Source of the DNA: an uncultured Pirellulales bacterium
GTDB lineage: Bacteria; Planctomycetota; Phycisphaerae; Sedimentisphaerales; SM23-30
Direction of reading: 5' to 3'
DNA: 64,000 bases
NCBI GenBank assembly: GCA_964537505.1
Contig: CAZICK010000003.1
Location: 13,321-77,320 of the forward strand
A program made the translations under genes and the position numbers. Under the pieces are notes generated by a model. That model made no database searches, was not told the DNA's origin, and worked only from the letters and a program-made list of their open reading frames with translations. Below, piece by piece: positions 840 to 19,786 of the stretch. The number at the start of each line of letters is the position of its first letter. Within the stretch, counting starts at the first letter, position 1.

Positions 840-941
840 TAGCACTTTAAGAGGGGGGCAGGCTTTTGGATAACAGGTGGTCTTGTAGTAGGGAGATCAC
901 CAAATTTAAATTCCATGGTAGGACAGTGGAGGCTTATTTTA

Positions 942-2522: not shown

Positions 2523-2707
2523 AGCATTCCAAATATCAGGATTGCCCGGGCCTAATCACGCCTAATCCGGCCCTGTCTCTAATCCTGCCTGTTATCAGCA
2601 GAAGATCGTCTGTTTGGGAAAAGGCGGCATCTCGTCGGATCCTTCCAATTTGATACTTGAAACCCGCGGCCTTAAGCTCTAAAATCAAGAGCAAATTAAA
2701 CCCTGGG

Positions 2708-2730
2708 ACGGATGAACGGATGAACGGATA
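2708..2730. repeat. Short tandem repeat (ACGGATGA) x~3
   Basis: acggatga-acggatga-acggata directly before the xseA start. Confidence 0.8.
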
Positions 2731-2735
2731 AAACA

Positions 2736-4391
2736 ATGATTCAAGGTGAGCTTCCATTTTTCAATTTTGACGACAAACAAAAAGGGTTTTCACGACAACC
2801 GGACTTCTTCGATCCGAAAAAGTCGGACAGCGTTGCCCAACCCTCTGCAGCCAGCCCACAAGAATCTGACAAAAAAGCAACGGCAAACTCACTACCCGAT
2901 GTTTATTCGGTCACACAGCTTACACGCATGATCAGGCTGGCACTTAATGAGCATCTGCCGGCCAAAATTGTTCTGGCCGGTGAAATCTCCAACTGTAAAT
3001 TTCACGGCAGCGGTCATCTCTACCTCAGTCTGAAGGACGAAAACACGTACATCTCAGCGGTTATGTGGAAAAACGCTGCCGGCCGGCTCAAATTTCGCCC
3101 AGCCGACGGCATGGCTGTTGTTGCCACCGGCCGGGTCGATCTCTATGAACCGCAGGGTAAATATCAGTTTTATATCGACAAACTGGAACCGTCCGGGACC
3201 GGCGTTTTGGAGCTGGCATTTCGCCAGTTGGCCGAAAAACTGCGAAAAGAAGGCCTGTTCGATGATAGTCATAAAAAACCGCTGCCGAAATACCCATCCA
3301 CTATTGCTATCGTTACCAGTTCCACCGGCGCCGCCATCGAAGATATTGCCAAGACCCTCAACAGACGTTTCCCCGGCGTGAGAAAATTACTTTATCCGGT
3401 TGCTGTTCAGGGTTCGGGCGCCGCAGCGGAGATCGCCGGGGCCATCGCCGAGTTGAACCGGCGTCGCGGCGAGTTCGGCGGCATCGACCTGATGATCGTA
3501 GGTCGAGGCGGTGGTAGTATCGAAGACCTATGGGCCTTTAATGAAGATATTGTTGCACGCGCCATCTTCGCCTGCGAAATTCCTGTTATCAGCGCCGTCG
3601 GCCACGAAATCGATCTTACCATCGCCGATCTGGTCGCCGACTGTCGGGCCGCCACTCCCACGGCCGCGGCCGAGTTGGCCGTGCCGGACAGAACCGAGAT
3701 ACTGCAAAGTATCCGGCAACTCCAACAGCGGCTTTACCACAGCACCCGAGGTCGCTGGGAATCGGCCCAGGCGACCTGGCAAAACCTCTCAGACCGCCCC
3801 TTGTTTGCCCGACCGCTGGATATCCTGCGTATCAGCCGCCAGTTACTCGACGAAAAAACCGCTATCCTCTCACGGCATCTCAGCGAGTTGTTCCGTCGCA
3901 CAGGGCGCATCATCGAAAGCCACGCCGCCGCCTTACGAGTAATCGAGCCGCATATCACCCTGGCCCGCGGTCAGAAACGCCTGGCCGAACTGGAGCACCG
4001 ACTACAGTCGGCGTCCGGTAGCTATTATAAAGCCCGCAAAAATCAATTAGCCATCACCTGTTCGCACCTGCTCGGGACCAGGCCGTTATATCGCGTCCGT
4101 CAGCAGCGGAGCACCGTTGAGCATTTGACCGGCCGAATAGATACCGCCCGGCAGTCGTTCTGGCGGCAATTACATCAGCAGCTAAACGCTTACACCGGGC
4201 GTCTGGAAAACCTCAATCCCCGCGGTGTTCTGCAGCGCGGCTACAGCATCACCCGCCTGAAAAACACCATGGAAATCGTCGGCGGAAAAACTAAAATAGA
4301 ACCGGGCGATCTGTTAATCACCGAATTAGCCGGCAAAACGAATATTGAAAGTAAAGTGACATTATCTGTCAAAAGGGAGCAAAAAAAATGA
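2736..4391 (+). CDS. xseA: Exodeoxyribonuclease VII large subunit
   Basis: GEISN...SGHLYLSLKD OB fold, RGGGSIEDLWAFN, SAVGHEID, ATPTAAAE and the C-terminal LNPRGVLQRGYSI. Confidence 0.96.
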   Translation: MIQGELPFFNFDDKQKGFSRQPDFFDPKKSDSVAQPSAASPQESDKKATANSLPDVYSVTQLTRMIRLALNEHLPAKIVLAGEISNCKFHGSGHLYLSLKDENTYISAVMWKNAAGRLKFRPADGMAVVATGRVDLYEPQGKYQFYIDKLEPSGTGVLELAFRQLAEKLRKEGLFDDSHKKPLPKYPSTIAIVTSSTGAAIEDIAKTLNRRFPGVRKLLYPVAVQGSGAAAEIAGAIAELNRRRGEFGGIDLMIVGRGGGSIEDLWAFNEDIVARAIFACEIPVISAVGHEIDLTIADLVADCRAATPTAAAELAVPDRTEILQSIRQLQQRLYHSTRGRWESAQATWQNLSDRPLFARPLDILRISRQLLDEKTAILSRHLSELFRRTGRIIESHAAALRVIEPHITLARGQKRLAELEHRLQSASGSYYKARKNQLAITCSHLLGTRPLYRVRQQRSTVEHLTGRIDTARQSFWRQLHQQLNAYTGRLENLNPRGVLQRGYSITRLKNTMEIVGGKTKIEPGDLLITELAGKTNIESKVTLSVKREQKK

Positions 4392-4624
4392 CTCAATCGG
4401 AACCTGAAAAACAAACGTTCGAACAGACTTTAGCCCAATTAGAAAAGATCGTCACCGATGTCGAACAGGGTAAGATCCCCCTGGAAGATTGCATCGACAA
4501 ATACGAGCAGGGCATGAAACTCATCGCCCACTGCCGGGACATCCTCGAACAGGCTGAGAAACGCATCGAAACCATTACCCGAGAGGCACAGAACACATCA
4601 CAAGGCAGTGCCGGCGACTCGTAA
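4388..4624 (+). CDS. xseB: Exodeoxyribonuclease VII small subunit
   Basis: TFEQTLAQLEKIV...LEDCIDKYEQGMKL...LEQAEKRI; overlaps the xseA stop (ATGA). Confidence 0.95.
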   Translation: MTQSEPEKQTFEQTLAQLEKIVTDVEQGKIPLEDCIDKYEQGMKLIAHCRDILEQAEKRIETITREAQNTSQGSAGDS

Positions 4625-4659
4625 ACAATTTGCGACCGGGCAATCGCAAGCGGCGGTGG

Positions 4660-7600
4660 CTATTCGCCCGTGTACTTGCCCTGTTTTTGCCTTTCCTTTT
4701 TCTCGTCGGGTCGGTTTCGCAAAATGCTTTTGATCATTTCCTCGGCCTCCTGGGCCTCTATACTCTCGGGCCATCTTTCCATAATCGTATCACACGAACG
4801 CAATGCCCCGATTGGAGTGAGTCTTTTTTGCACATAGGCCTGCTGCAACATCTGTTTGGCCTGATATACGCTTTCCCTTTCGTGCGTTTTGACCGGATCC
4901 TTTTTTGGAGATTGTGGTAATTCGCCCAGTTGCTGATATCCGGTGGCCGCGGACTTATCGAGGCCGGTATCGCAGGCCAGTTGTACATACTCGAACCAGA
5001 AAAATCTCCGGTTGAGGTATTCATCCGATTCCGACAAACGCGTTACCGTATCTGTGATGTTGCGAATCGGTCGAAGATGATAATCCACTTGCTCCCCGGA
5101 CAACTTCACCGCCATACGCGGCTGAATGAAATCCTTGAGTTCGTTATCCGTTATCTTTACAAAATCCGTACCGAAACGGACCGGGCCATACAAAAAGGAT
5201 TCGCTTCCGGTAGCCAGCCATAACATGGCAATCGCATTGGCCGAACGAACCAGATAATCAAGCGATTCAGGTTTGTTTTGGGCGGCTGCGTTCCGCTGGT
5301 AATACGCCGCTTCAAACAGCGACAGACGAGCCAACCCATATTGTTTGGTCTCAACCTTATACAAAACCTCGTTCCATAATTGACTGAACTCCTCCGACGG
5401 TTTTGCCAATGAATCGAGATGGCCGATTTCCCCCTCCGAAATCTCCAGGGGCTTCCAACTGAATATCATGCTTTCGAACTCATTGTCCGGACTTCGCATC
5501 AGCAGAGTTGGATGCTGCGTCAGGAGCCACTGCTTTGCCTTGAGGTATTCGGTAATCGAGGGTTTGCCCTGGTAAAATTTGGTCAGCCGCTTATCGATCT
5601 GGTCGATCCCGTCAGCACTCTCGAAATCCGTCAGATTGAACTTGATGTTCGTATCGACAGGGTCCGAACTCTTTTGCGACGGTTGTTCCATCGTTTTTAT
5701 GCCTTTGATGAGTCTTGCCATAAAACTTTGAGATTGTTCCTTAGCCGTATCTTCGGTGGGAGGGATATTCGCCAGCAGTTGCGTTACCACCGCCTGCTTC
5801 TGCAGAAACCCATCCGAGACAATATAACCATAACTGACCGCGAATCGCTCAAATTCCTCCAGCAGTGGCTTTACCGCCAGTTTCCATGAGGCCTTGACCC
5901 CCCATTGCATTTCATTGGCCTGGTCCGAACGGCCCATTTTTTCGAGAATCTTCGCAAACTCAATCTTGATCTGGAGTTTGTTAACCGCATTCTGAATGGC
6001 CGATTCCATCTCGCTGATCATCGCCTTGATCTGACTGGAGCTTGGCACCCCGGTAGGAATGCTGGTGAAAACAAAATCCAGAGGCGGCATCTCACGATAT
6101 AACGTTGCCGCCAGGTGCAAATTTCCTTTAGCGTCCGCTTGCTGCGCCTTTTGCCGCATGATTTCCGGTTGCCATTGACTCGAAATACCGATAAAAGGAC
6201 TGGGAACCGTCTGATCACTGGGAACAAGAAAATCACTCTGCTGACCGGCTTTCAAACTGTCCAGTTGGCTGTCGTCATAAAACTGAGAAACAATCTCACC
6301 ATTTTCATCAAGAAAAATCAAAGATGATGGTTCGTTAGCGGTTTCACCGCCAATGACACTTCTGCTCATGGGACCTCCCATAGGCATACCGGGTCTTCCC
6401 ATAGGCATCATTGCATTGCGCATCGCGGACGGCATCGCGCCGGGCAAACCACGGGTCCCCCATGGATTTCCGCCGGAACTGTCAAGATTCTGCCAAATAA
6501 ACAGCCGACCGCGCGGGTCAAATCCGTATGGAGTAGATACAAAAAATTCTTTTGCGTTTTCGATATGAAGTTTATGGTCCCAAAGCGTTTGCTGCCAGTT
6601 CTGACCTTGGCTGCGGTCCATGGTGATCGCGGTCTTTCCCAAAAACACCGCGTCAAAAAGTAGCTCATCAACGGTTTTACCACGGCGGCCGTTCTCCTCA
6701 ATGTCACTAATCAGCTCGCTAATAGCATCCGATTGGGTGTCGCAGGCCCACTTGAGCATTCGCTTGGCGATGTCGAGATCGTCGTCATAGCGAGAAAACG
6801 ACACGGGTCTGATTAGTCGCCCCTTGTACGGTTTGCCCGGTTGGAAACTAGGCGTGTGAAGCTCCAGCATATCGGAATCCGTAAAATAAATCTTCTGCCC
6901 CTTATCGCTGATCAAATATCTTTCACCTTGATCGTCACGGTAAAAATTTATCTCAACTGAACCTTTTTCCTTTTCCAACACACAAAACAAAGGAACCATG
7001 TCAAATTTACTGGCATACTCTCTTGATTGCGATTGCTGCTGGGTCAACTGTCCCTGCAGAGACTTCAGGGTACTCAGTTGCGCGTATGAAAAGACCAGAT
7101 ACTTTCCTTCCTCGTTCGCCCCAAGGGCCATCGTTTTCTGACGCCGCCAGGCAGACTTGAAGGTAGTCACAGGGCTTACATGTATCGGAATCGTCAGCAG
7201 ATGTTCGACAAAAACCGGACTCGAATCATAAATAGTCAGCGTATATTCGCCGATCTGACCCAAATCGCCGTTGGCAATGGGCTGCCTGTCCCTAAGCAGA
7301 TTATAAAGATTGCGAAGCCCGCTAGCCGGTTGCTGATCATCCTGCCCACCGAGGCCGGTTGACGATTGTCTGGAGTTGCTATTATATTGTCGAGGAAAAC
7401 CAGAATTGGCTCTTGCCCCAGTCAAACCACCTTCCTGGGTAAAGTATTTTTCGATTTCTTCTTCTTTACCGCTCCAGCGAAACAGATAAAGATCGGAGGC
7501 CTGCCATGGTCCTTGTTTGTTGGGCTTGTCGAGAAATCTCCATTGCGACCTGCCCGACGCCTGCATTTGCTGCCAAAGATGGCCTTTTATATAGGCATAG

Positions 7601-8808
7601 GTATAGCCGCTACGGTCCGTCATCAGAAAATACTCGCTGTTGAAAAATTCCTTGCAACGGGCCACCTCGTCAAATACAGGATCCCGACTGATCCCCAACG
7701 AATAAGATATAATGCTCAAAAGAAACCGACTTATTGATTCCGGCACACCCGATTTCGACTGAGGCCAGCCAGCCGGAGCCGCCGTCCGACGAGCGTCAGG
7801 ATACATCCCAGGTGGCATCCCTGGATACATTCCAGGTGGCATTCCAGGTATAAAGTTCGGCCTCACCGATCCCGGTTGGACGGCGGCCGTCTGGTCCTCA
7901 CGACCGAGGTCTGCATCGAGACTTTGCTGGATCGGCAGCAGCCGACGGTTGCGCTCGATAATGGACGGTCGTGACTCCAAACGCAAAAACTCCTCGTCCT
8001 GATTGGCATCTATCATCCATGCCCGAACAACATCCGCCTCAATCTGCATCGGATCACTGTCAATGACCATATCGAGTATTTGCTTCATTTGCTCTCGTGG
8101 AAGCACCGACTGATCGTCGATGACCACCGCCGAGAGCGATGCCTGCACCAACGCCATACCAAGATCACCGTTCACCAGTTCGTCCCCGCGTCGCTGCTCC
8201 CAGCGAGGCCCGATAAGGTCCACCGCTTCCTTGTATTTGCCCTGACGAATCAGAATCTGGCAATTGGTCAGGTATTTCTCATCGTCAACCCATTCCTGTG
8301 GAACGTTCGAGTCGCCCACCTTGGTCTTTTTTATTATCCCGCGGCGATGGTGCAGCATACCACCCAGTTTCGCGTAATTGTCTTGTTTTTTCGCCTGCCA
8401 GGCCTCCTGGAAAAGTGTAGCCAAATTCCGCGGAAAATCAGGAACGACAAATTTAGGCACTGCCGGTTTGCTTTCAACATCGCCCGGACGTTGAATTGAA
8501 GGAGGTACCCATGGGGGCCTGTCCATGTTTTGATAGGGCGACCGCGGGCCACCTGGTCCCTGCTGCAGATATGTCGGATCTACCGGCGCCACTCCGCCCA
8601 AGCCTACTCCCGGGCCGATAAGCGGTCCGCGGTCCGGCCTACCACCCGAACGATTGCCGGAGGACGTATTGGGGTCCGACCCAGATTGACCTGCCAATTC
8701 ACCGGAGCCTGCCGACAAAACCGCAAAAATCACGCACCCCAGAAACGCTAAGACCTTACCGCTTGGGCAAAAACCAACACCTCGGCCATTTTCCACAAAG
8801 TAACTCAT
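4660..8808 (-). CDS. Large hypothetical secreted protein with Pro/Gly/Met-rich low-complexity linkers
   Basis: 1382-aa ORF with a hydrophobic N-terminal signal-like segment and PGMPPGMYPGMPPGMYP and GMPMGGPM tracts. No family recognised. Confidence 0.75.
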   Translation of the reverse strand: MSYFVENGRGVGFCPSGKVLAFLGCVIFAVLSAGSGELAGQSGSDPNTSSGNRSGGRPDRGPLIGPGVGLGGVAPVDPTYLQQGPGGPRSPYQNMDRPPWVPPSIQRPGDVESKPAVPKFVVPDFPRNLATLFQEAWQAKKQDNYAKLGGMLHHRRGIIKKTKVGDSNVPQEWVDDEKYLTNCQILIRQGKYKEAVDLIGPRWEQRRGDELVNGDLGMALVQASLSAVVIDDQSVLPREQMKQILDMVIDSDPMQIEADVVRAWMIDANQDEEFLRLESRPSIIERNRRLLPIQQSLDADLGREDQTAAVQPGSVRPNFIPGMPPGMYPGMPPGMYPDARRTAAPAGWPQSKSGVPESISRFLLSIISYSLGISRDPVFDEVARCKEFFNSEYFLMTDRSGYTYAYIKGHLWQQMQASGRSQWRFLDKPNKQGPWQASDLYLFRWSGKEEEIEKYFTQEGGLTGARANSGFPRQYNSNSRQSSTGLGGQDDQQPASGLRNLYNLLRDRQPIANGDLGQIGEYTLTIYDSSPVFVEHLLTIPIHVSPVTTFKSAWRRQKTMALGANEEGKYLVFSYAQLSTLKSLQGQLTQQQSQSREYASKFDMVPLFCVLEKEKGSVEINFYRDDQGERYLISDKGQKIYFTDSDMLELHTPSFQPGKPYKGRLIRPVSFSRYDDDLDIAKRMLKWACDTQSDAISELISDIEENGRRGKTVDELLFDAVFLGKTAITMDRSQGQNWQQTLWDHKLHIENAKEFFVSTPYGFDPRGRLFIWQNLDSSGGNPWGTRGLPGAMPSAMRNAMMPMGRPGMPMGGPMSRSVIGGETANEPSSLIFLDENGEIVSQFYDDSQLDSLKAGQQSDFLVPSDQTVPSPFIGISSQWQPEIMRQKAQQADAKGNLHLAATLYREMPPLDFVFTSIPTGVPSSSQIKAMISEMESAIQNAVNKLQIKIEFAKILEKMGRSDQANEMQWGVKASWKLAVKPLLEEFERFAVSYGYIVSDGFLQKQAVVTQLLANIPPTEDTAKEQSQSFMARLIKGIKTMEQPSQKSSDPVDTNIKFNLTDFESADGIDQIDKRLTKFYQGKPSITEYLKAKQWLLTQHPTLLMRSPDNEFESMIFSWKPLEISEGEIGHLDSLAKPSEEFSQLWNEVLYKVETKQYGLARLSLFEAAYYQRNAAAQNKPESLDYLVRSANAIAMLWLATGSESFLYGPVRFGTDFVKITDNELKDFIQPRMAVKLSGEQVDYHLRPIRNITDTVTRLSESDEYLNRRFFWFEYVQLACDTGLDKSAATGYQQLGELPQSPKKDPVKTHERESVYQAKQMLQQAYVQKRLTPIGALRSCDTIMERWPESIEAQEAEEMIKSILRNRPDEKKERQKQGKYTGE

Positions 8809-9066
8809 GGCTTATTCTCCTGGCATGTAGCTTACGCTTGCATTTTCCCCCTATTTCAATTTAGTTCATCACAATTATTATACCAATACCGACCGTTTTT
8901 GCAATGAATAATATAACCCCCCAAGAGGATTTATCTAATTCCCTGTGGAACCACAAACGAGCATAACCCCATCAAAATCAAGCACTTACAAGATTTTGCT
9001 ACCCCCAAATCCAACGAAATCTCACCGCCCAGATTGCCGGCTCAATTGTTTTATTTACTCAAACTG

Positions 9067-9816
9067 ACTCTCAATAATCTGTTGGATGCTGAGGCTGATC
9101 AGTTGTGTCAGGCTCAGCGTTATGAGCGAACCGGCGTACGCACAGACACTCGTGCCGGTCATTATCAGCGTAAACTGCACACCAGGGCCGGCGAGGTAAA
9201 CTTGAAGATGCCCAAGAGGACAAGGCCCAGTTGGGGTGCTTTTTTGAGTGATTTGAAGAAGCGAGGTCTCAAAGGAGTGCGTTTGTTTGTTTCGGACAAG
9301 TGCCTTGGATTGGTGGAATCTTTGGCTGAATTTTATCCTGACTGTGATTGGCAGCGTTGCACGGGGCATTGGTATCGTAATGTCTTTAGCCATGTTCCTA
9401 AACAAAAAGTCAGAGAGGTCGCAGCGATGCTCAAGGCTATCCATGCCCAGGAAGACAAACAGGCGGCCACAGAGAAGGCTCACACTGTCATCAAGAAGCT
9501 CAAAGAGATGAAATTGTCGAAAGCCGCCCAGATCGTTGCTGAGGGTTTTGAGGAGACTTTCAGTTATTATTCTTATCCTGATAAGCACTGGCGGCAGTTA
9601 CGAACCAACAATCCTCTTGAGCGAATTATGCGTGAGATCAGACGTAGAACGCAGGTGGTTGGCAGTTTCCCGGATGGTCATTCAGCGTTGATGTTAGCTA
9701 CAGCTCGACTGAGGTACATTGCTGGTACCAAGTGGAGTAATCGTCGCTATATGGACATGGATCACCTTTATGCTCTTGAAAGAGATCGGCCCATCAAGGA
9801 AAAAAGCACCGCGTAA
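9067..9816 (+). pseudogene. IS256-family transposase relic, 5'-truncated and internally deleted
   Basis: TLNNLLDAEADQLCQAQRYER...AGEVNLKMPK is joined directly to SWGAFLSDLKKRGL...QRCTGHW...RTNNPLERIMREIRRRT. The central part with the first catalytic Asp is missing. Confidence 0.9.
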
Positions 9817-9830
9817 GCCCGATAACTCGC

Positions 9831-9846
9831 GGCCCCCTAGGGGGCC
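9831..9846. repeat. Perfect 16-bp palindrome in the IS 3' region
   Basis: GGCCCCCTAGGGGGCC. Confidence 0.8.
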
Positions 9847-9888
9847 AAGGTATGGAAGAAAAGACCAGATGAAAGACTACCAGAAAAA

Positions 9889-9915
9889 AATGTGCGAAAG
9901 ATTCTTGACACTACC
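9889..9915. mobile_element. Probable right terminal inverted repeat of the IS256 relic
   Basis: ...AATGTGCGAAAGATTCTTGACACTACC about 75-100 bp after the transposase stop resembles IS256-family ends from memory. No left partner seen. Confidence 0.55.
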
Positions 9916-10194
9916 CCACCACCACGGCCAGCCAAAACCCGCACAGCCACAACCTTTTGTGGTTAATGAAGTTACGCAACACCATGGCGAACATTTTTGT
10001 TGCTGGCAGCGACTATTTCAGGCTAAAAAAAGGAAGACCCTACCGTGGCGAGAGGATCTTCCATACTTGCCCGCAAACACCACTTATTCTTCAAGTGCCA
10101 AAGTGGTTTTGCCGTTTTTGTCGAACTACTCATTCGACCAAGGTTCGTCGGCTTTGATATTGATAAAACTTTCCACCGACAAACCTGTCATAGT

Positions 10195-10314
10195 TTAACT
10201 ATGACACATTTTTTTTTTGGCGGTTTTCTTCTTGGTGGTTTTTTTCTTCGCTACTTTTTTCTTAGCCACTTTTTTCTTCGCTACTTTTTTCTTAGCCGCT
10301 TTTTTCTTCGCCAT
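10195..10314 (-). CDS. 39-aa Lys-rich histone-H1-like microprotein (absent from ORF track)
   Basis: Hand translation MAKKKAAKKKVAKKKVAKKKVAKKKTTKKKTAKKKMCHS*. Strong RBS AAGGAGGTGA immediately upstream of the ATG. 15-bp repeat units vary by synonymous or conservative changes and stay in frame. Confidence 0.85.
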   Translation of the reverse strand: MAKKKAAKKKVAKKKVAKKKVAKKKTTKKKTAKKKMCHS

Positions 10315-10522
10315 GTGTATCACCTCCTTTCCGAAGTGAATATCAATCGCATGTTAAACAATCAAAAACTATTTCTAACTAAACTCTTCATCGATCATTA
10401 TTTCTTATTTACTTTTTAGCAATACAAAAACTTCATTTTTTTTATCGTCATATAAGCTCATGTGACTTCATTATATTTTTATCAGACACACACAAACATC
10501 CAGTTTTGTAATCCGCTAATAT

Positions 10523-10737
10523 AAAAATAAACTAAAATTGCGTAAAAACAAATCAAATTCATGTAAAAACATACTAATTTCATGCAAAAACATACCAAAT
10601 CCACATAAAAACAAACCAAGACTGTTGAAAACAAACTACAATCACACAAAAACAAATCAAATTCATGTAAAAACAAAACCAAATTTATAAAAAAACAGAA
10701 AGATTGCATAAAAACAAACCAAATTTACAAAAAAAAC
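10523..10737. repeat. Imperfect ~21-bp tandem array with phased A-tracts (~10 units)
   Basis: Units such as AAAAACAAATCAAATTCATGT (identical at 10544 and 10648). The A-tract-C anchor recurs every 19-22 bp. Confidence 0.85.
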
Positions 10738-10886
10738 GTTACTGCGGAACAATCTAACAGCTTAACTGATAGTTAATCGCTTTAATTTATAAATTTAAAG
10801 GTGTGTTACGGTGAGGTGTTGAACATTTTACAGTTTATTTGATGCCGAAATTTTGAAAGACCATATATATTTGAACGGTTGTGATG

Positions 10887-10948
10887 TATTCGATGTGATT
10901 ATTCGATGTGATTATTCAATGCGATTATTCGATGCGATTATTCGATGA
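10887..10948. repeat. 13-bp tandem array TATTCGATGYGAT x~4.7
   Basis: tattcgatgtgat x2, tattcaatgcgat, tattcgatgcgat, then partial tattcgatga. Confidence 0.9.
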
Positions 10949-11256
10949 GCACACTGTGCAAGTAACAAATACATCCTAAAATTGCTTATTGAGCGTCAAG
11001 TTTTTGGGGAGTATTATGTCTTATAGTACAAATATTATAATTATCTGTAACAAATTGTGGTAAGAAATCGGGGTATCGGGACCAACTCAGGTATGTTTTG
11101 TGATGGCAAGCAGTCGCCTGGGATGAGATGGATAGGACGTGCAGTGCCCATGAGCAGCCAAAAACAGTTACTTGCCCATGCCGGGCGATTGAGTTATAAT
11201 TAGTCCGATAGTGATATGTTTGAGAAATGCAATCTGAGCGATTTGGACAACGGAAT

Positions 11257-12231
11257 ATGAGGATTATTGCTTTAGCTAACCAGAAGGGGGGAGTCGGTAA
11301 GACTACAACGACGGTCAATCTGGCTGCAGCGTTGGCTGAAATGGGTAAAAAGGTTGTTTTGATAGACCTGGACCCGCAGTCTCATCTGACGGCTTTTATG
11401 GGGATAGCACCGGAGGATATCAGGTATTCGAGTTATTCGGTATTGATGGAGTCGGAGCCGCTGAGAAAGTCGCTAATATCGGTGCGGGATAACATGAAGG
11501 TGGTGGCTTCGGAGTTGAATCTGGCGGCAGCGGAGCAGGAGTTAGTCTCGGTGGTAGGCAGGGAGACCATTTTGCGTAATGCGTTGGCGGGGTACGATCA
11601 GGAGTGCGACTATATTTTCATTGATTGTCCGCCTTCGCTGGGTCTGCTGACGCTGAACGCATTAGGTGCGGCAGGGGAAGTTTTTATACCGATGCAAGGT
11701 CAATTTCTTTCGCTGCAGGGGTTGAGCCAGTTGCTGGAGTCACTTTTGCTTGTGCGAAAGCGGATCAATCCGTGCTTGAAGGTCAGTGGGTTGCTGCTTT
11801 GCATGTTCGATGCACGAACTTCACTTTCAACGGAGATTGTAGGCGACATAAAGGGATTTTTCGCCGGTCAGCGGGATCGGGACTGTCCGTGGAGTGATAT
11901 CAGGATTTTCGAGACCCGAATACGTCGCAATGTAAAACTGGCTGAGTCTCCCAGTCATGGTCAAACGATATTTGAATATGAACCGGATTGCAACGGCGCC
12001 CGGGATTATCGAGCTTTGGCTGAAGAAGTCGAGTCGATGTCCGCTAATGAGTCTGTGCAGGAAGAAGCCGGCAAACCGACAACGGTCGATGGTGATGGGT
12101 TAGTGAGCGGCGTCCGGGGCGATCAGCCGAAAGCTGCGGCTGTTGTTCCTGCCGGTGAGACGGTTGGTTTGGATACCAGGGCTGATTCTCCGGTAAGCGA
12201 AGAGACTGATTGTCAGGATGACCGTGGATAA
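11257..12231 (+). CDS. parA: ParA/Soj-family ATPase with acidic C-terminal tail
   Basis: ANQKGGVGKTTT deviant Walker A, IDLDPQ, IDCPPSLGLLTLNAL, IRRNVKLAESPSHG. Confidence 0.92.
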   Translation: MRIIALANQKGGVGKTTTTVNLAAALAEMGKKVVLIDLDPQSHLTAFMGIAPEDIRYSSYSVLMESEPLRKSLISVRDNMKVVASELNLAAAEQELVSVVGRETILRNALAGYDQECDYIFIDCPPSLGLLTLNALGAAGEVFIPMQGQFLSLQGLSQLLESLLLVRKRINPCLKVSGLLLCMFDARTSLSTEIVGDIKGFFAGQRDRDCPWSDIRIFETRIRRNVKLAESPSHGQTIFEYEPDCNGARDYRALAEEVESMSANESVQEEAGKPTTVDGDGLVSGVRGDQPKAAAVVPAGETVGLDTRADSPVSEETDCQDDRG

Positions 12232-12362
12232 TTGCTTACGCGTGCAAGCGAGTGGCAGGGGGCGGGCAAAGGTGAAGCTTGCTTATGTTTTGCACAAGTT
12301 TGGCGTAAGTATGCCACCGTCGATTCAAACATCATGGCCGTTGGGAAGCCCGATGGAATTTT

Positions 12363-13118
12363 ATGAACCTGAAACGATTACAATCATTGCTGCCCTGGCT
12401 GGTGCTGGGTATTTATTGGCCGATGTTGTTTGTCGGGACGCACCTTCCCCATCCGCCACGTATAGACTTGTACGGCAGGGACAAGACGCTGCATTTTGTC
12501 GCGTACTTTTTTTTGACCGTGTTGTTTTGGGTGGCCAGTTATGGTACGGATCGTCCGAGCCTGCGTAAAGGCAGGCTGTATAAAGTTGTTGTTTTGTTTG
12601 CTCTTTACGGGGCGATGGATGAGATAACGCAGGGATTGGAATTTATAGGTCGGACATGTGATCCTTTTGACTGGGTGTTCGATATATGCGGGAGCCTGAC
12701 AGCATTGCTGTTGTTGTTTTTGATCCGTCGCTGGCTGTATTGGTTGATACTTTACTGGGTGGGTTTGGCGGTGATTACTCATTGGCCGGCTGATAAACCA
12801 TTTGTTAAGTTGCCGGAGTTTTTGCAGCCGTTTAGGGCAGCATATATGATGACGGCGTATCTGGCGCTGACGCTCGCCTGGTGGCGTATGCTTTGTCCTC
12901 AGCGGCGGTTTATAATCAATAAAACCATACTGGTCTTGACGTTATTTGTGTTGGGTTTTTACGCATGTCTGGATGGATTTGTCAATATGTGGATGCGTGG
13001 TAGTTTTGATGTTAGTGATTTTCTCTCAGGGTTGGCGGGTATCGTTATTGGGATAGGATGCTCAGCGGCCCTGGCCCGGCACAATGTCACAGTCGAGGCT
13101 TATGGCAATGGCGAATAA
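12363..13118 (+). CDS. VanZ-like membrane protein (tandem VanZ-like modules)
   Basis: DKTLHFVAY...YGAMDEITQ...DWVFD, then a second degenerate module (YACLDGFV...DVSDFL). Multiple hydrophobic helices. Confidence 0.75.
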   Translation: MNLKRLQSLLPWLVLGIYWPMLFVGTHLPHPPRIDLYGRDKTLHFVAYFFLTVLFWVASYGTDRPSLRKGRLYKVVVLFALYGAMDEITQGLEFIGRTCDPFDWVFDICGSLTALLLLFLIRRWLYWLILYWVGLAVITHWPADKPFVKLPEFLQPFRAAYMMTAYLALTLAWWRMLCPQRRFIINKTILVLTLFVLGFYACLDGFVNMWMRGSFDVSDFLSGLAGIVIGIGCSAALARHNVTVEAYGNGE

Positions 13119-13179
13119 TCGCAACGCATAACAAACTAAGGTTAAGATAGCTGTTGGGACGTTATAGCATATAGCTTGA

Positions 13180-13313
13180 TGTTGCAGAAAAACAACATAA
13201 CAAACCATACAAACTACCTCTGTTACCTACTCCTTAAACTCAACACAATCGGTATAATTCTAATGTTGTGTTTTTACAACACTTTTATAGGTCAATGTTG
13301 CGAAAAAACAACA
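13180..13313. promoter_or_regulatory. Three palindromic TGTTG-N8-CAACA sites
   Basis: Copies at 13180-13197, 13264-13281 and 13296-13313, just upstream of TTGACT at 13321. Confidence 0.75.
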
Positions 13314-13508
13314 AATGCTCTTGACTTTTAGGCGGTAAAATTGTAATTGTATATTAGAGAGAAATATGTTTCTCATTTGTTATTGGGCAGAATCAAGCCA
13401 CATGCAATAATGTTTGAACAGTTCGGCAGGAGAGAGAATTGAGATAGTTTTTCGTATCAACTTTTTTGGGAATTGATCCCCAACATTTAAGGTTTTTGTT
13501 ATCGGATT

Positions 13509-14678
13509 ATGCAAACGGGAAAAGAGAAAAAACAAAACGATCAGGCCGTTGGTTTTTTGAAAGTCGCTTTTGACGGTTCGAAGACCCCGGAGCTTCGCTT
13601 TGGTTACATGGCGGGTCATCTTATCAATGTTATGCCTTTGGGTGTAGTGGCATTTGATACGGAGTTGACTATAACCGACATTAATCCCAGTGCCAGGGGG
13701 ATGTTGATCCCGGCGGAGAACATTGCCGATGCCCTGTCCTTTGGCAGTAACTTCGATCAGGAGCAGACGTGGCATCAGCGTTTACAGTTGGCTCTGGAGA
13801 GTTCGGATCCGTGCGTTTTCGAGAATATTGCTTATGCCAACGATGGTGTGAACCATATTTTGCATATTATCTGTACGCCGTTGACCGAGGAAGTAAGTAA
13901 TCGGCATATCGGCGGTATTCTTTTGATAGAAGACGTAGCGGATAAAGTGATGATGGAAAACGATCTGGCGTCTGCGGAGCGTCTGGCGGCGATGGGGAAG
14001 CTTGCCGCCCGTGTGGCTCACGAATTGAACAATCCGCTGGACGGGATTTTGCGTTATATTAATCTTGCTCTGCGGGTGGCGGACAAAAACAACAGCGATC
14101 AAAGCGTGCGGTATCTTCAGGAGTCGCGTAAAGGTCTGCAGCGGATGGTGCAGATCATAGGTGAGCTGCTGGAATTTTCGCGAAGTACTTATTCGGCTTT
14201 TGAACAGACCGATCTCAACGATATTGTGGAAGACGCCCTCAAGGCGATGGAATCGCCGATTCTGGAGAAGAAGATTCAGGTGGAGCGGCAATACACTTCG
14301 GATTTGCCCCATATTCGCAGCGGTAATTTGTTTCAGGTTTTTTGCAATCTTATCAAGAACGCGGCGGACGCCATGGATCAGCGGGGCAAGCTGACCATCC
14401 GGACCGGTTGTGACGAGCACTATTTGCTGATCGAATTTGCCGATACCGGCTGCGGTTTCAGCGAGGAGACGCGCAAGAAGCTTTTTGAGCCGTTCTTTAC
14501 TACCAAAGACGCCGGTAAAGGTACAGGGCTGGGCCTAGCTATTTGTAAAGATATTGTCGAACGTTATAACGGACATATTTGTGCCCAAGATCGGCCGGGT
14601 GGAGGGGCGGTTTTTACGGTAAGCATACCGCTGGGGTTTGCCACCAAGAATCAAATTAGGCGGTTACGGAGCGGATAG
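13509..14678 (+). CDS. Cytoplasmic PAS-type sensor histidine kinase
   Basis: H-box AHELNNPL, N-box [32 protein letters not shown]-like N-terminus and no TM segment. Confidence 0.92.
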
Positions 14679-14715
14679 CTGTAGGTTTTTCGGACAGGAA
14701 AGGGAGACAGTAGAA

Positions 14716-16113
14716 ATGGCGGGAGAAAAACTATTAGTAGTCGATGACGATCAGATCATTCGTGAATCGTTATGCGAGTTTCTCAAGTTAGAAGGTTACC
14801 AGTGTCGTCAGGCAGGTGATTTCAAACAGGCCCTTGGGGAGCTGGAAAAACAGGACTACAATCTGGTTGTTACCGACGTCAATATGCCGGAGATGGACGG
14901 ATTTGAATTGCTGCGGGTGATCCGCAAGCGTTATCCGGAAGTGGTCACGATTGTTATCACCGGCTACGGTACGATCGAAAGCGCGGTCGAGGCCATTAAG
15001 ATGGGGGCATACGATTATCTGACCAAGCCGATCGTCGATGATGAAATCCGCATGATTGTCTCGCGAGCTTTGGAGCAGCAGGCGTTACTGCAGGAAAATC
15101 GCAATCTGCGCAATCTGCTGCGTGGGCAATACGGGCTGGATAATATTGTCGGTCAGGACTACAAGATGCTCAAGATATTCGAGCTGATCGAGGCCGTGGC
15201 CGACAGTAAAGCGACAGTGTTGATTACCGGTCAGAGCGGTACCGGCAAAAGTCTGATCGCCCGGTCGATCCACCATCGGTCCAACCGCATGGAAAAGCCG
15301 TTTGTTGAGGTGAGCTGCGGGGCATTGCCGGAGACACTGCTGGAAAGTGAGCTTTTCGGTCATGTCAAGGGTTCGTTTACCGGAGCGGTAAGCGATAAAA
15401 ATGGTAAGTTCCAGGCAGCGGACGGCGGGACGTTGTTTTTGGATGAGATCAACTCTGCTCCTGCCAGTCTGCAAGTGAAGCTTTTGCGGGTGCTGCAGGA
15501 GAAGCAGTTCGAGCGGGTGGGCAGTAACGAGACGCAGACAGTCGATGTTCGCGTTCTGCTGGCTACGAACGTAGATCTGCAAGAAGAGGTCAAGTCCGGG
15601 GGATTCCGTGAGGATTTGTTTTATCGGATCAACGTGGTGAATATCGAGATGCCGGCTTTGGCGGAGCGGGTCACCGACATACCATTGCTGGCAGGAAGGT
15701 TTCTGGAGGCGATGAGCCTCAAGCACGGCAAGGAAAAAACCAGCTTCGACAACGAAGCTTTGCGGGCACTGGAACACTATAGTTGGCCGGGCAACGTGCG
15801 TGAACTGGAGAATGTGGTCGAACGTGCAGTGGTACTCTCCAAGCACAGCAATATCGAACTGAACGATCTGCCACAAAATATCATCGACTATGTTAATAGA
15901 GAAGAAAGTGCTGTGGCGTTCAAATCGCTGAGCCTGCGCGAGGCCATGGAAGAACCGGAAAAAAAGATTATCGAGATGGCTTTGCGGCGTAACAACTGGA
16001 ACCGCCAATTGGCCGCCGATATGCTGGAGATCAACCGTACTACACTTTATAAGAAGATGAAGCGTTATGACCTGGAGGTCGATCCGCTTGTTCGGTCAGT
16101 GAGCCATAAATAG
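14716..16113 (+). CDS. Sigma54-dependent response regulator (NtrC/AtoC family)
   Basis: Receiver (VVDDD, TDVNMP), Walker A GQSGTGKS, ESELFGHVKGSFTGA, FLDEI, WPGNVRELEN, and a C-terminal Fis-type HTH. Confidence 0.95.
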   Translation: MAGEKLLVVDDDQIIRESLCEFLKLEGYQCRQAGDFKQALGELEKQDYNLVVTDVNMPEMDGFELLRVIRKRYPEVVTIVITGYGTIESAVEAIKMGAYDYLTKPIVDDEIRMIVSRALEQQALLQENRNLRNLLRGQYGLDNIVGQDYKMLKIFELIEAVADSKATVLITGQSGTGKSLIARSIHHRSNRMEKPFVEVSCGALPETLLESELFGHVKGSFTGAVSDKNGKFQAADGGTLFLDEINSAPASLQVKLLRVLQEKQFERVGSNETQTVDVRVLLATNVDLQEEVKSGGFREDLFYRINVVNIEMPALAERVTDIPLLAGRFLEAMSLKHGKEKTSFDNEALRALEHYSWPGNVRELENVVERAVVLSKHSNIELNDLPQNIIDYVNREESAVAFKSLSLREAMEEPEKKIIEMALRRNNWNRQLAADMLEINRTTLYKKMKRYDLEVDPLVRSVSHK

Positions 16114-17103
16114 CTAACTGGGTATAAGAACGGCGGCCGGACGCTTTTTCGGAGGAGGTGTAAGTTTGTTCCAGATCGCCTGTCCAAGCGATCTGGCCAG
16201 TCCCGCCGGTCCCAGGGCCTGTTCGCATCGCGAGCAAAGAAAGCTGCGTGGTGCAGGCTTACCGCTATAAAGCAACTCTATCGCCTCCTTGCGCGGCGGT
16301 GAGTTCCAGACGGTTGATATACCATCTTTGCCAACGTCGCCCCATATCAGTTCGCGGCCCATATCCTGACAGCACATTACGGCCCGGCCGTCAAACAGGA
16401 TCACCATTTCCACCAGGGGATGATGGCATTGGCAGCCGTAAAGGCGAACAGTATTTCTGGAGTTTTTTTTCGAGTTTTTTGGCCGCAATCTCCCCACGGC
16501 TCCGCAGCGGCTGATCGGAGGGAGATACTCTAGTTGTACGTGTTTGTCCCTCCAGAACTCGAGCCATCGCTGGGGTTCGCCGGTTGGCCAATTGTCGTCC
16601 ACGCCGCGAATGAGGATGTTTTCCGGATTGTAGTGTTCGATCAGGTAAAGCACGTGTTTTAGCGAGGTTTGGTAGTCCAGGCCGAGGATTCGCTGGTAAA
16701 CTTCCGGGGTTATTCCGTGAAAACTGATGTGGATTTTTCCGTTAAAGCCGGTTTTCAGCAGGGCATCGATCTTTTGCGGGGTCATAACCGAGGCGTTGGT
16801 GTTCAGATATATGTCTATTTGGCGATCCAAAGCAAAACTGACATAACGGTCCAGATCGTCAGTCAGGAAAGGTTCGCCCATATAACAGTAGGTTAATATC
16901 GGACGAAAACCATGCTCCCGACCGAGTGCGGTGAACTCTTCCACAATAGACTGGTACAAAGGCCAGGGCATCCGGCCCTGACTGTGCCGCTTTGAATAAC
17001 GAGGATAAGGACATATAGTACAGCGAGCATTGCAGTATGAATGGATGTCGATGATGAGTTTTATGGGGAAGCTGCGGACACGATGTAAAAATGGATTTAT
17101 CAT
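16114..17103 (-). CDS. Radical SAM protein with SPASM/Twitch domain
   Basis: CNARCTIC (CxxxCxxC), MGEPFL, C-terminal CHHP...MCCQD...CSRC. Confidence 0.88.
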   Translation of the reverse strand: MINPFLHRVRSFPIKLIIDIHSYCNARCTICPYPRYSKRHSQGRMPWPLYQSIVEEFTALGREHGFRPILTYCYMGEPFLTDDLDRYVSFALDRQIDIYLNTNASVMTPQKIDALLKTGFNGKIHISFHGITPEVYQRILGLDYQTSLKHVLYLIEHYNPENILIRGVDDNWPTGEPQRWLEFWRDKHVQLEYLPPISRCGAVGRLRPKNSKKNSRNTVRLYGCQCHHPLVEMVILFDGRAVMCCQDMGRELIWGDVGKDGISTVWNSPPRKEAIELLYSGKPAPRSFLCSRCEQALGPAGLARSLGQAIWNKLTPPPKKRPAAVLIPS

Positions 17104-17174
17104 GCTCTTTTCATCGGCAATTGACGGTTGTTAACCTGAGCGATTATGGTTATTGGTTTGTGTGGGCGGGTGGT

Positions 17175-17822
17175 TTATTCTGGTTCGCCCGGTCCGTTCG
17201 GCGGCCGCAGTTCTTTTTTGAGCCAGGGCCAGTAGTAAGTGGTATATACCCATATAGATACCAGATTGATTATCATACTGGCAATTTCCACGGTATAGAT
17301 GATGATCGGATGGAGTTGCAGCCACCAGTGTTGGGGCGCCTGGAGATAATAATAGATTGTGCAGATTGCCGGGAATGAGATGACGGTGCGTGCCTTGCCG
17401 GACCAGTTGGCCTTGGCATCGACGTTGTACAAGGCTCCGATCGACCGCAAAAAAGATACCCATTGGTCGCGCATAAGGAAAAGGATCGCCAGGCCAAGTA
17501 GCAGTCCGGCATGCTTATACTGTCCGGCAAGGCCCGCCAGGTAAACCAAAGTGGGGAAAGTGGTCAGGTAAAAAACCTTGTCGGTCAGAGGGTCCATGTA
17601 GGCTCCCATGCGGGTGACCACCTGAAACCGGCGGGCAAAATAACCATCGAACAGATCGGTCACGGCTGAGAGGATCATCGCTGTGAAAGCGATCGTAAAC
17701 CATAACTGACTCAACGGTTTGTCGGCAAACAAATTCACCGCCAGAAACACGAGGATCAGCGGTATCCGTCCACAGGTAAGCAGTTGCACAAAATAGAACT
17801 TGTTTTTGTATGAGTTGCTCAT
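17175..17822 (-). CDS. CDP-alcohol phosphatidyltransferase
   Basis: TDLFDGYFARRFQVVTRMGAYMDPLTDK matches DxxDGxxAR...GxxxDxxxD. Hydrophobic. Confidence 0.92.
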   Translation of the reverse strand: MSNSYKNKFYFVQLLTCGRIPLILVFLAVNLFADKPLSQLWFTIAFTAMILSAVTDLFDGYFARRFQVVTRMGAYMDPLTDKVFYLTTFPTLVYLAGLAGQYKHAGLLLGLAILFLMRDQWVSFLRSIGALYNVDAKANWSGKARTVISFPAICTIYYYLQAPQHWWLQLHPIIIYTVEIASMIINLVSIWVYTTYYWPWLKKELRPPNGPGEPE

Positions 17823-18643
17823 CAGAGCTGTTCTCCGAGCGCCCGGGCCTGCAGAATCAGATCGGCAACCTGTCGAAAACCCGCTCCGCAGGATTTGGTA
17901 GTGATAAATCTCGGGTGATGCTGCATCATCGCCAGGAAAGGTTCGACATTAGCCATTCCGAACGATAACCGAAAGAACTCGAACATCGGTTCATCATTGG
18001 GTGAATCGCCGCAGTAAACAAACTGCTGACTTTCTCTGTCCAGTTCGAGGCCTAAAAGCTCGCGTACACATAATTTTGTGGTGGAGAGTTTGTCGAAATC
18101 GCCATACCAGCCGTTGACATGGATCGAGGAAATCCGGGCGTGAGCACCGGCTTGTTCGAACAGTTCTTTGATGCGCAAAACGTGTTCTCGCGGCAGTGGT
18201 TTGACGTCTTCGCAGAAGTCTATAGCCAGATCATATTCCCGATAAGGCTGGTCTGAGGCAATGTCGCTGCCGGGTACCTGCTGCAAAATTGTTTTGCGTA
18301 GTGACTGCAGTTTTTTGCGGAAAGCGGTCCTTTCGGCCTGACTGTAGAGAAAACGGCGTTGCAGTTTTCCCCCGTCATGGTGGAAATAAAACCCTCCGTT
18401 TTCGCCGACCACGGCATCCACCGGCCAGAAACGCCCGATATGGTCGCACCATCCAGCCGGCCGACCGGTGACGACTATAATACGTATGCCGGCATCATGA
18501 AGTCGCCACAGGGCGTCAAATGCCTCGGCAGTGATCCTGCCGGAGGTCGAGAAGGTATCGTCAATGTCTGTCAAAAGGATTTTGACGTTTGCCAGGCATT
18601 TAGGATCCAACTGATCGATTGTTTTCAATTTCACCGTAGTCAT
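17822..18643 (-). CDS. HAD-superfamily (IIB) hydrolase/phosphatase
   Basis: TDIDDT motif I, VTGRPAGW motif II, GDSPNDEPM motif IV. Confidence 0.88.
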   Translation of the reverse strand: MTTVKLKTIDQLDPKCLANVKILLTDIDDTFSTSGRITAEAFDALWRLHDAGIRIIVVTGRPAGWCDHIGRFWPVDAVVGENGGFYFHHDGGKLQRRFLYSQAERTAFRKKLQSLRKTILQQVPGSDIASDQPYREYDLAIDFCEDVKPLPREHVLRIKELFEQAGAHARISSIHVNGWYGDFDKLSTTKLCVRELLGLELDRESQQFVYCGDSPNDEPMFEFFRLSFGMANVEPFLAMMQHHPRFITTKSCGAGFRQVADLILQARALGEQL

Positions 18644-18647
18644 AGTT

Positions 18648-19604
18648 TTATCTTTTGTCGTCGATAATCAGTTTTAGTGTCTGCTGCAGGTTGGTTTTAG
18701 GCTCGAATCCGGTCAGTTTTTTTATCCGGTCCAGCGAGGGTATCCGCCGCATCATGTCGTCGAAAGGTCGGCCGTAAGCCTGTTGATAGGGGATGTATCG
18801 TTTTTCGCTGGCACTGCCGGTCAGTTCGATTATTTTGTCTGCCAGGGCCTCGATAGTGGTTTCTTCGGTCGAGCCGATGTTGTACACACTGCCAGGCGAT
18901 TCGGGACAATCAATCAGGCCCATCAGCCCGTCGATCACGTCCTGTACGTAACAAAAACATCGCGATTGTTTACCCGTACCGTAGATTACGACAGGGTCAT
19001 TTTTCAGTGCTTGGTCCACAAATCGCGGTATCACCATTCCGTACTGTCCGGTCTGACGCGGCCCTACTGTATTGAAAAGACGAACCACTATGACCGGCAG
19101 TTCATATTGCTGATGGTAAGCTAACGCCAGGAACTCATCGATCGCCTTACTGCACGCGTAAGACCAGCGGCTGAACCTGGTACTGCCCAGGACCGTATCA
19201 TCGTCTTCCCGAAACGGCACATTTTCACTTTTGCCGTACACCTCACTGGTCGAGGCCAGCAGTACTTTTTTGTGGAACTTGTTAGCCATCTCCAGCACGA
19301 CTTCGGTGCCGTGGATGTTGGTCTCGATCGTTCTGACCGGCTGATCGACGATAAGCTGGACGCCGACCGCCGCGGCCAGATGAAATATGACATCACACTG
19401 CCGGGTCAGGCGGTACATCGTTTCGGGGTTCCGCACATTGTCCTGAACGAATTGGAACTGCCGATGGTCATATACTGTTTCGATATTCTTGAGACTGCCT
19501 GTACTCAGATCGTCGATTACGACCACTTCATGACCGGTCTGCAAAAGCCGTTGGGTCAGATGCGATCCGATGAACCCGGCGCCTCCTGTAACTAATGCCT
19601 TCAC
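18648..19604 (-). CDS. NAD-dependent nucleotide-sugar epimerase/dehydratase
   Basis: VTGGAGFIGSHL, ASTSEVYG, YACSK (YxxxK), RLFNTVGPRQ. Confidence 0.92.
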   Translation of the reverse strand: MKALVTGGAGFIGSHLTQRLLQTGHEVVVIDDLSTGSLKNIETVYDHRQFQFVQDNVRNPETMYRLTRQCDVIFHLAAAVGVQLIVDQPVRTIETNIHGTEVVLEMANKFHKKVLLASTSEVYGKSENVPFREDDDTVLGSTRFSRWSYACSKAIDEFLALAYHQQYELPVIVVRLFNTVGPRQTGQYGMVIPRFVDQALKNDPVVIYGTGKQSRCFCYVQDVIDGLMGLIDCPESPGSVYNIGSTEETTIEALADKIIELTGSASEKRYIPYQQAYGRPFDDMMRRIPSLDRIKKLTGFEPKTNLQQTLKLIIDDKR

Positions 19605-19786
19605 TTGCTTTTTCCGTTCTTATACCCATTGGGTATAACTTACACTTTCTCATCTCAATGAGTTAACATAATACCATCGGTCGATCGGAAGCTGGTAACT
19701 TGTCGAGTCACATTATAGCGTTTCGCCGGATGGGGGCAAGGGAAAGAATTTTCACCTCTGCAATCCCGCTCAACTGTGTATATCAG

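Follow-up and report, generated by a model that had tools for sequence, protein, structure and literature searches.

A conserved transcription unit with a Lys-rich microprotein ORF and a folded 3' RNA domain near an orphan parA of Planctomycetota

The question raised by this locus is whether a short, repetitive ORF near an orphan parA is a gene at all and, if so, what its very Lys-rich product may do. The ORF lies on the minus strand of the window (the whole 64-kb stretch of DNA that was analysed), within a 1.1-kb AT-rich intergenic gap (GC 0.33 versus about 0.50). The analyses below show that it belongs to a conserved unit, here termed the K-unit, which comprises a promoter, a consensus Shine-Dalgarno (SD) sequence, an ATG, a Lys-rich ORF of variable repeat number (K-ORF), a folded 3' domain of about 170 nt and a terminator. 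By analogy with known proteins, it is reasonably likely that the K-ORF product is an abundant disordered polycation, which would bind polyanions like the tail of histone H1, Hc2, BpH1 and AlgP. The coordinates of the features are listed in Table 1.

Table 1. Positions of the K-unit features in the window and of K-ORFs of a second type in other loci
Feature	Position	Strand	Details
Lys-rich microprotein CDS	10195..10314	minus	ATG 10314-10312, TAA 10197-10195, 39 codons
Shine-Dalgarno AAGGAGGTGA	10320..10329	minus	inside conserved 5'UTR; the 10-mer occurs once with both strands of the 64-kb window counted
Conserved 5'UTR TCGGAAAGGAGGTGATA	10318-10334	minus	encloses SD
Putative promoter region and transcript 5' end	10335..10405	minus	degenerate TTGATT..TGATAT; RNA contigs reach 10351 (X22) and 10405 (X24)
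Helix H1	10187..10205	minus	hairpin directly after ancestral stop; 5 of 6 pairs with double changes
Helix H2	10142..10185	minus	long hairpin, large A/U-rich loop; helices 2-3: 5 of 8 pairs with double changes
Helix H3	10120..10138	minus	GUCGAAC..GUUCGAC, sequence conserved
Helix H4	10071..10114	minus	4 of 6 pairs with double changes in aligned core
Intrinsic terminator H5	10024..10062 (hairpin 10062-10032)	minus	GGAAGATCCTCTCGCCACGGTAGGGTCTTCC and T-run; RNA contigs stop at 10047/10048
Pirellulaceae-type K-ORFs	L041 4070-4189 (P0014); L057/L058 5211-5423 (Stieleria)		

The Lys-rich ORF and its transcript

As described in an earlier sequence-only reading of this DNA, in which the strand was unstated, the translated product of the window ORF (MAKKKAAKKKVAKKKVAKKKVAKKKTTKKKTAKKKMCHS) has 39 aa with 21 Lys and seven xxKKK pentads. 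The near-perfect ribosome-binding site (RBS) claimed there was confirmed, with the GGAGG of the SD spaced by 8 nt from the ATG. An SD of at least 5 nt was found for just 7 of the 40 long ORFs of the window, a strong SD being rarely used by this genome, and no second ORF of comparable Lys richness was detected among the ORFs of the 64-kb window. Because the DNA of the Lys-rich ORF is built as a 15/30-bp tandem repeat, its probability of arising by chance cannot be calculated simply; a purine-rich repeat is open in several frames almost automatically, and ORF integrity alone is weak evidence. That the ORF is more than chance is established by conservation, codon pattern and RNA evidence taken together. 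A 7-bp 5' hairpin (UCACUUC/GAGGUGA, 10320-10339, minus strand) was also predicted, which pairs the SD and could tune translation initiation; it is weaker (4-5 bp) in the relatives L004 and L047.

An exact look-up of the window peptide gave no match, and a protein database search with the 42-aa form was empty at E<=1e-3, with only two weak matches at E<=10; for a low-complexity query of 39 aa against 5.8 billion sequences, significance is out of reach. The JGI gene calls nevertheless include the peptide. The locus is identical in five other assemblies, and in the JGI metagenome contigs among them the 39-aa ORF was called as a gene.

Transcription was assessed with assembled metatranscriptome contigs, which are unstranded. 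In the metatranscriptome X22 (237 Mb), a 292-nt contig with a depth of 35.8 and an allele of the type found in the relative L038 spans 10047-10351, ending inside the terminator and 37 nt upstream of the ATG, respectively, with zero flanking coverage. No other X22 contig covers more than about 50 nt of window positions 1-20000, the remaining three being partial matches of 32-51 nt. A contig of X24 extends over 10246-10405. In X23 a contig starts at 10048, and the whole region is covered evenly at about 5x, so this data set adds little evidence for a discrete transcript. The K-unit is thus transcribed as a discrete RNA of ~300 nt, which is far more abundant than its neighbours, and a lack of transcription, which the sequence-only reading had listed as refuting, is not what was observed. 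The promoters of the relatives are near consensus (a T-run and TTGACA-17-TAATAT or TTGACA-18-TATGAT, with 10-11 of 12 matches), and a strict promoter scan upstream of the window ORF gave no match.

Conservation of the ORF in relatives

L038 (ParA 92% identical) encodes MAKKKVAKKKVAKKKVAKKKTTKKKTAKK, which is one pentad shorter by a 15-bp in-frame deletion, and L004 (a MAG labelled Pirellulales, ParA 65% identical) encodes MAKKKKAAKKKVAKKAPKKKATKKAKKAKK. The SD, the ATG and the K-frame are retained in both, and every indel is a multiple of 3. The whole region is 92-98% identical between the window and L038, so this pair is uninformative on purifying selection. The metagenome collection was scanned with the 3' terminator element alone (AAGNTCCTNNCGCCACGGNAGGNTCTT), which is nearly identical in the window and L004; the phylogenetic range was sampled by this exact-pattern search, and taxonomy was taken from the MAG labels. 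Fourteen loci were obtained; in 2 of them the DNA breaks off right upstream of the match, and an ATG-initiated Lys-rich ORF was found behind AGAARGGAGGTGAT in 12 of the 12 with enough upstream DNA. The element AGAARGGAGGTGAT is conserved across all alleles, with the consensus SD at a fixed distance from the ATG in every one of them. The sequence-only reading had made the ORF depend on the conservation of frame and RBS in relatives, and both were found to be kept in L004, in L038 and in all 12 of these loci. Together with the window, L038 and L004, the loci from the terminator scan give 11 distinct proteins of 26, 26, 29, 30, 31, 39, 54, 58, 75, 84 and 97 aa, with the SD-proximal ATG taken as the start, and their Lys content is 46-68%; across the relatives, K-ORF length is about 26-99 aa.

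The frame set by the ATG is the richest in Lys codons in every allele, with AAG and AAA at a ratio of 173:165. The non-Lys codons are GCN, GTN and ACN with the third base free (Ala 107, Val 35 and Thr 34), and they have an entropy of 0.99 bits at the first, 1.19 bits at the second and 1.97 bits at the third position; these counts are inflated because the repeat units within one gene are non-independent, and the pattern is consistent across alleles. At the aligned positions of L045 and L053, the non-Lys codons that differ change in the third base only, all synonymously, and the length difference between the two is nine codons, in frame. From this third-position-only freedom of the non-Lys codons, we conclude that the K-ORF appears to be under selection as a protein. 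The ORF, with conserved frame and RBS and with a transcript, is therefore a real small gene lying under the usual annotation cut-offs, as had been supposed.

The last five codons of the window ORF (K-M-C-H-S) proved to be a read-on extension into the first 3' hairpin. L038, L043, L004 and the transcribed allele all terminate with ...AA(A/G) AAG TAA. The window lacks a 'GT' in the coding A-run, by which two A5 runs are fused into A10 (10209-10218, the position of the ancestral stop) and the ancestral AAG-TAA stop is gone; the relatives carry an extra 'AC' behind 10213 on the plus strand, that is, GT on the coding strand, and GT is also present in the transcribed alleles of X22 and X23. Owing to this 2-bp loss, the frame runs five codons past the ancestral stop, and the new stop codon of the window allele falls in the loop of H1. 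Judged by these alleles, the 'MCHS' tail arose through a recent loss of the stop, is fixed in one population and has no family-wide role. Dimerisation or metal binding through the Cys-His tail, which had been suggested before, is not a family property, since the tail is confined to the window allele; a 2-bp slip in a coding A-run can yield a misleading, 'functional-looking' Cys-His tail. Two other K-ORFs, P0015 (L042 1299-1496) and P0035, likewise have no stop codon where the Lys repeat ends, and their frames continue into the 3'UTR and terminator or run past them, so stop loss at the A-rich end of K-ORFs appears to recur and to be tolerated.

Outside the clade, a protein database search with the 84-aa allele gave 34 weak matches (best E=0.07), which were judged by eye and by context and serve as leads only. 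P0016 is 'hypothetical protein LOC67_10170' of the cultured Stieleria sp. JC731, with a false N-terminal extension; the real start of this K-ORF is GGAGGAATACT-GTG, its length is about 70 aa and it ends with AAKKRR. A second conserved K-ORF locus, of the Pirellulaceae type, consists of an M50 peptidase gene, the K-ORF and a convergent gene for an Mrp/ApbC Fe-S ATPase, and the P0014 and Stieleria loci share the 5'UTR CGGAGGAAT(A/G)ACT-GTG. P0014 ends with ...KKGMCCCK, a Cys-rich tail seen in this single sequence. Further examples are P0037, P0020, P0026, P0027 and P0015, and many other starts of the form SD plus MAKKK... were found in DNA and RNA metagenome contigs. The K-ORFs outside the clade have an SD, a short 3'UTR and a simple terminator, with no 170-nt domain, and their annotated versions usually carry a spurious N-terminal extension. 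Since they occur without the 3' domain, what all K-ORFs have in common is the polycationic protein, and the RNA domain was added in this clade only.

The 3' RNA domain, genomic context and alternative explanations

A conserved structured RNA domain at the 3' side of the ORF had been overlooked in the sequence-only reading. The segment from the stop to the end of the terminator hairpin measures 161-184 nt across alleles, with a fold z-score of -4.76, and its consensus fold consists of five independent hairpins (H1 to H5) with no competing antiterminator pairing. In the consensus built on nine distinct sequences, 41 pairs were obtained, of which 93.7% are formed, versus 33-43% when the partners were slid. 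Double changes were found in 17 pairs, versus 2-5 for the slid controls, and none of 500 shuffles did as well; covariation therefore supports a folded 3' RNA domain of the K-unit. The sequence of H5, its loop CGCCACGG included, is near-invariant in relatives with ParA only 55-72% identical, an invariance which is partly by construction because the terminator was the search pattern. The domain has one copy in the window, and none was found near the more distant parA loci L005-L034. Rfam gave no match at the gathering score for the window and L004, and nothing for five other K-units; the best match of a permissive search was sub-threshold RT-17 (E=0.22, 20 versus 40 bits). The extreme conservation of the terminator and H3 suggests a specific role for the RNA itself, which the polycation model leaves unexplained.

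Two features were noted on the opposite strand. An ORF of 109-159 aa (9869-10198 and 9719-10198, plus strand) runs antisense to the 3' domain and is a JGI-called gene with no Pfam match; a similar antisense ORF is present in L004, and the ORF is most likely spurious. The H1 palindrome with a T-run complementary to the Lys codons (10186-10206, plus strand) scores as an intrinsic terminator and could be a bidirectional stop for transcription from the insertion sequence (IS) fragment described below.

On the strength of the 3' domain, the K-unit could be taken for a dual-function or mainly regulatory RNA, in which the 3' domain would be the chief effector (a protein-binding RNA or a base-pairing sRNA of the 3'UTR type) and the K-ORF would play a minor part, its translation serving, for instance, just to stabilise or tune the RNA. 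This explanation, which we consider unlikely but not negligibly so, draws on the five helices with strong covariation, on the fold z-score and on the discrete, abundant transcript; it also draws on H3, the terminator and its loop, whose near-invariance at the above ParA identities is unusual for mere terminators. Dual-function sRNAs with ORFs of <50 aa are a known class (PMC12310071). The K-ORF, however, shows protein-level constraint, and the Pirellulaceae-type and other K-ORFs keep the SD and the ORF without the 3' domain, which means that the protein persists alone, whereas the invariance of the terminator is, as stated, partly a product of the search.

The neighbours of the K-unit in the window are a truncated IS256-family transposase gene (9034-9816) and the orphan parA (11227-12231, plus strand), which is divergent from the Lys-rich ORF and 912 bp from it. 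In the ancestral block, the genes for an S41 peptidase, the K-unit, parA and a vanZ-like gene lie on one strand (L004, L047/L051 and L054). In 9 loci (L004, L044, L047, L049-L052, L054 and L055) the K-unit lies directly ahead of a co-oriented parA, which bears out the synteny with parA that the sequence-only reading had proposed to check. In L045, L053 and L056, the order is S41 peptidase gene, K-unit and nitrilase-type gene, with parA absent, and in the lineage of the window, L038 and L043 the K-unit is inverted beside the IS256 fragment. In L004, parA has a promoter-like site of its own after the K-unit terminator. The linkage with parA is thus real synteny, yet the K-unit is autonomous, as shown by its separate promoter and terminator, its inversion here and its occurrence without parA elsewhere.

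Several other observations were made in this region. The IS256/Mutator-family transposase fragment has 260 aa, matches the C-terminal part of the profile only and is conserved in L038 and L043 (89-96% identity); it probably marks a rearrangement which uncoupled the K-unit from the S41 peptidase gene and flipped it with respect to parA. With 9 nt between the end of the parA promoter-like site of L004 (TTGGCG-17-TATAAT, L004 1301-1338) and the parA ATG, the parA mRNA of L004 seems to be leaderless or near-leaderless. Between the K-unit and parA of the window lie about 10 tandem 21-bp units (GTAAAAACAAACCAAATTCAT, 10521-10735), which are retained in L038 and absent from L047 and L054, and across which a spurious 75-aa JGI gene was called; a ParA partner might bind the array as iteron- or centromere-like sites, or the array might have arisen along with the IS-linked rearrangement. 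Five tandem 13-bp units (TGTGATTATTCGA, 10880-10947) lie about 280 bp upstream of parA, with about 2 copies in L038. Both arrays were considered as part of the K-unit and rejected, being lineage-specific. Farther away, a 1382-aa ORF (4660-8808, minus strand) with low-complexity Pro/Gly/Met-rich stretches is conserved in L038 and has no Pfam match on record in the JGI tables.

The ParA subfamily has no adjacent parB, and a VanZ-like membrane protein follows. The C-terminus of the window ParA (11980-12231) is an acidic disordered tail with 17 D+E versus 6 K+R, and across orthologues such tails have 60-95 aa and a net charge of -5 to -23. The tail was found in all Planctomycetota orthologues fetched, with the K-unit nearby or not, and L010 (labelled Spirochaetota) is without it. 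As a specific sign of a partner role for the K-ORF, the acidic tail was rejected, since ParA orthologues without a K-unit have it too.

Partners of ParA and MinD stimulate the ATPase through basic N-terminal peptides, and the K-ORF product might by the same token be a dedicated partner of the orphan ParA, either as an ATPase-activating polycation or as a bridge between the nucleoid and the acidic tail. The position of the K-unit directly upstream of parA in the 9 loci and the charge of the ParA tails speak for such a role, which we nevertheless hold to be very unlikely. The K-unit and parA have separate promoters, with the K-unit terminator in addition, and K-unit RNA is far more abundant than parA RNA; L045, L053 and L056 keep the S41 peptidase gene and the K-unit without parA downstream. 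The whole block from the S41 peptidase gene to vanZ is syntenic, so the adjacency is not specific to parA. Moreover, the ParA orthologues of L005-L009 are acidic-tailed with no K-unit within 4 kb, the Pirellulaceae K-ORFs adjoin a different ATPase (Mrp/ApbC), and the K-ORF has no cargo- or DNA-specific domain beyond the repeat.

That the RNA is untranslated and the ORF incidental, the (AAG AAA AAA) blocks being (ARN)n Hfq-type sites or a repeat at the DNA level, is a highly improbable alternative. It would suit the occurrence of the 15/30-bp tandem repeat in a 1.1-kb AT-rich stretch with other repeat arrays, and A-R-N triplets together with a U-tailed terminator are reminiscent of Hfq class II sRNAs. 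It does not suit the fixed spacing of the consensus SD and the ATG in every allele, nor the spacers, which are whole codons for Ala, Val and Thr only with free third positions; the other frames (RKK or EKx) are never the ATG-set frame, and the neighbouring repeat arrays are lineage-specific while the K-ORF is not.

A cis-acting leader-peptide attenuator, in which translation of a Lys-rich leader would control terminator read-through into parA, would fit the ancestral order of promoter, short ORF, hairpins, terminator and parA on the same strand (gap 46-700 nt) and the abutment of H1 on the stop codon, where a terminating ribosome would melt H1, but is barely credible in general and largely refuted by strand and context for the window, where the inverted K-unit faces the IS256 fragment with no downstream gene and is conserved and highly expressed all the same, and it also conflicts with the different downstream gene of L056, the promoter-like site of parA after the terminator in L004, the consensus fold without an alternative antiterminator pairing and the ORF length of 26-99 codons, unlike any known leader.

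Proposed function and comparison with known systems

In the polycation model favoured here, the K-unit would be a gene which stands alone, is strongly expressed and encodes an intrinsically disordered microprotein of very high Lys content (54-65% of residues). The peptide would bind polyanions by non-specific electrostatics, with chromosomal DNA, RNA or ribosomes, or polyphosphate as the candidate targets. Charge density alone would matter, and the repeat number could then drift freely. The 3' RNA domain probably controls the mRNA stability or translation of a potentially toxic product, or binds the peptide itself. A bolder version, which we put forward tentatively and consider improbable as a whole, is a bipartite RNA-peptide module that is a major determinant of nucleoid or RNP compaction in planctomycetes, with the 3' domain as sensor, chaperone or antidote through autoregulation or co-condensation. 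In this version the cell would produce a polylysine-like peptide in large amounts, and K-ORFs across Planctomycetota, cultured Stieleria included, would belong to one phylum-wide family which size cut-offs and wrongly extended N-termini have concealed.

Which factors condense the nucleoids of PVC bacteria was still explicitly an unsolved question in a review of 2011 (PMC3177640), and no later identification of DNA-condensing factors of PVC bacteria or planctomycetes was found in the literature searched. Being highly expressed, conserved and similar to the H1 tail, the K-ORF family may be proposed by analogy as a concrete candidate for DNA condensation in Planctomycetes/PVC, and it is testable in the cultured Stieleria sp. 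JC731. Standard pipelines miss K-ORFs or add false N-terminal extensions to them, and trypsin-based proteomics would destroy the peptide. A low-complexity microprotein linked to a covariation-supported structured RNA outside Rfam is unusual, and no description of the K-unit was found in the literature searched.

The likeness to the H1 tail and Hc2 proposed in the sequence-only reading held for composition and failed at the profile thresholds. Hc2 has basic pentamers with A/V/T spacers, varies in repeat number in frame and binds DNA and RNA (PMC2848022). The K-ORF shares with the Hc2/BpH1-type proteins (PF07382, NF038053) the consecutive basic pentamers, the Ala/Val/Thr spacers and the evenly spaced positive charge, as well as a repeat number which differs among close relatives without loss of frame, a place in the PVC superphylum and, probably, a non-specific affinity for nucleic acids. 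It differs from them in having three Lys per pentad instead of two K/R, almost no Arg or Pro and a conserved structured 3' RNA domain; the Hc2/BpH1-type proteins have 165-237 aa with conserved non-repeat flanks, whereas the K-ORF has 26-99 aa, with the repeat running from residue 2 to the stop. The window peptide scored 13.9 bits with the PF07382 profile (cut-off 40 bits) and 11.7 bits with NF038053 (Burkholderia H1-like; 80 bits), and the longer alleles of 54-97 aa gave no Pfam or NCBIfam match at E<=1. By profile, the K-ORF is not a member of the Hc2 or H1-like families, and its likeness to Hc2/BpH1 may be convergent low complexity rather than homology.

With the C-terminal domain of linker histone H1 and the tail-only H1 of kinetoplastids, the K-ORF has in common a disordered polycation rich in K/A/T/V and a presumed neutralisation of DNA charge; it is much shorter, denser in Lys, bacterial and probably unrelated by descent. 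A Pfam search of the window peptide gave no Linker_histone winged helix (PF00538) and only the weak HC2 match, and 39 aa of pure repeat leave no room for a winged-helix domain. Pseudomonas AlgP, an H1-like protein with KPAA repeats, is likewise a repetitive Lys/Ala polycation of a bacterium, and it shows that polyphosphate granules, in place of DNA, can be the target of such tails (PMC9239181). AlgP is much larger, with a KPAA unit and an N-terminal domain.

The dual-function sRNAs of the SgrS/SgrT, RNAIII/Hld and SR1/SR1P type resemble the K-unit in being short RNAs which are transcribed independently from a promoter of their own and ended by an intrinsic terminator, and which combine a small ORF with a conserved structured part. 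The K-unit differs from them in that its product is a low-complexity polycation and its non-coding part lies 3' of the ORF. Compared with all these systems, the K-ORF is a micro-sized, higher-charge polycation of pentad repeats, coupled to an undescribed structured RNA.
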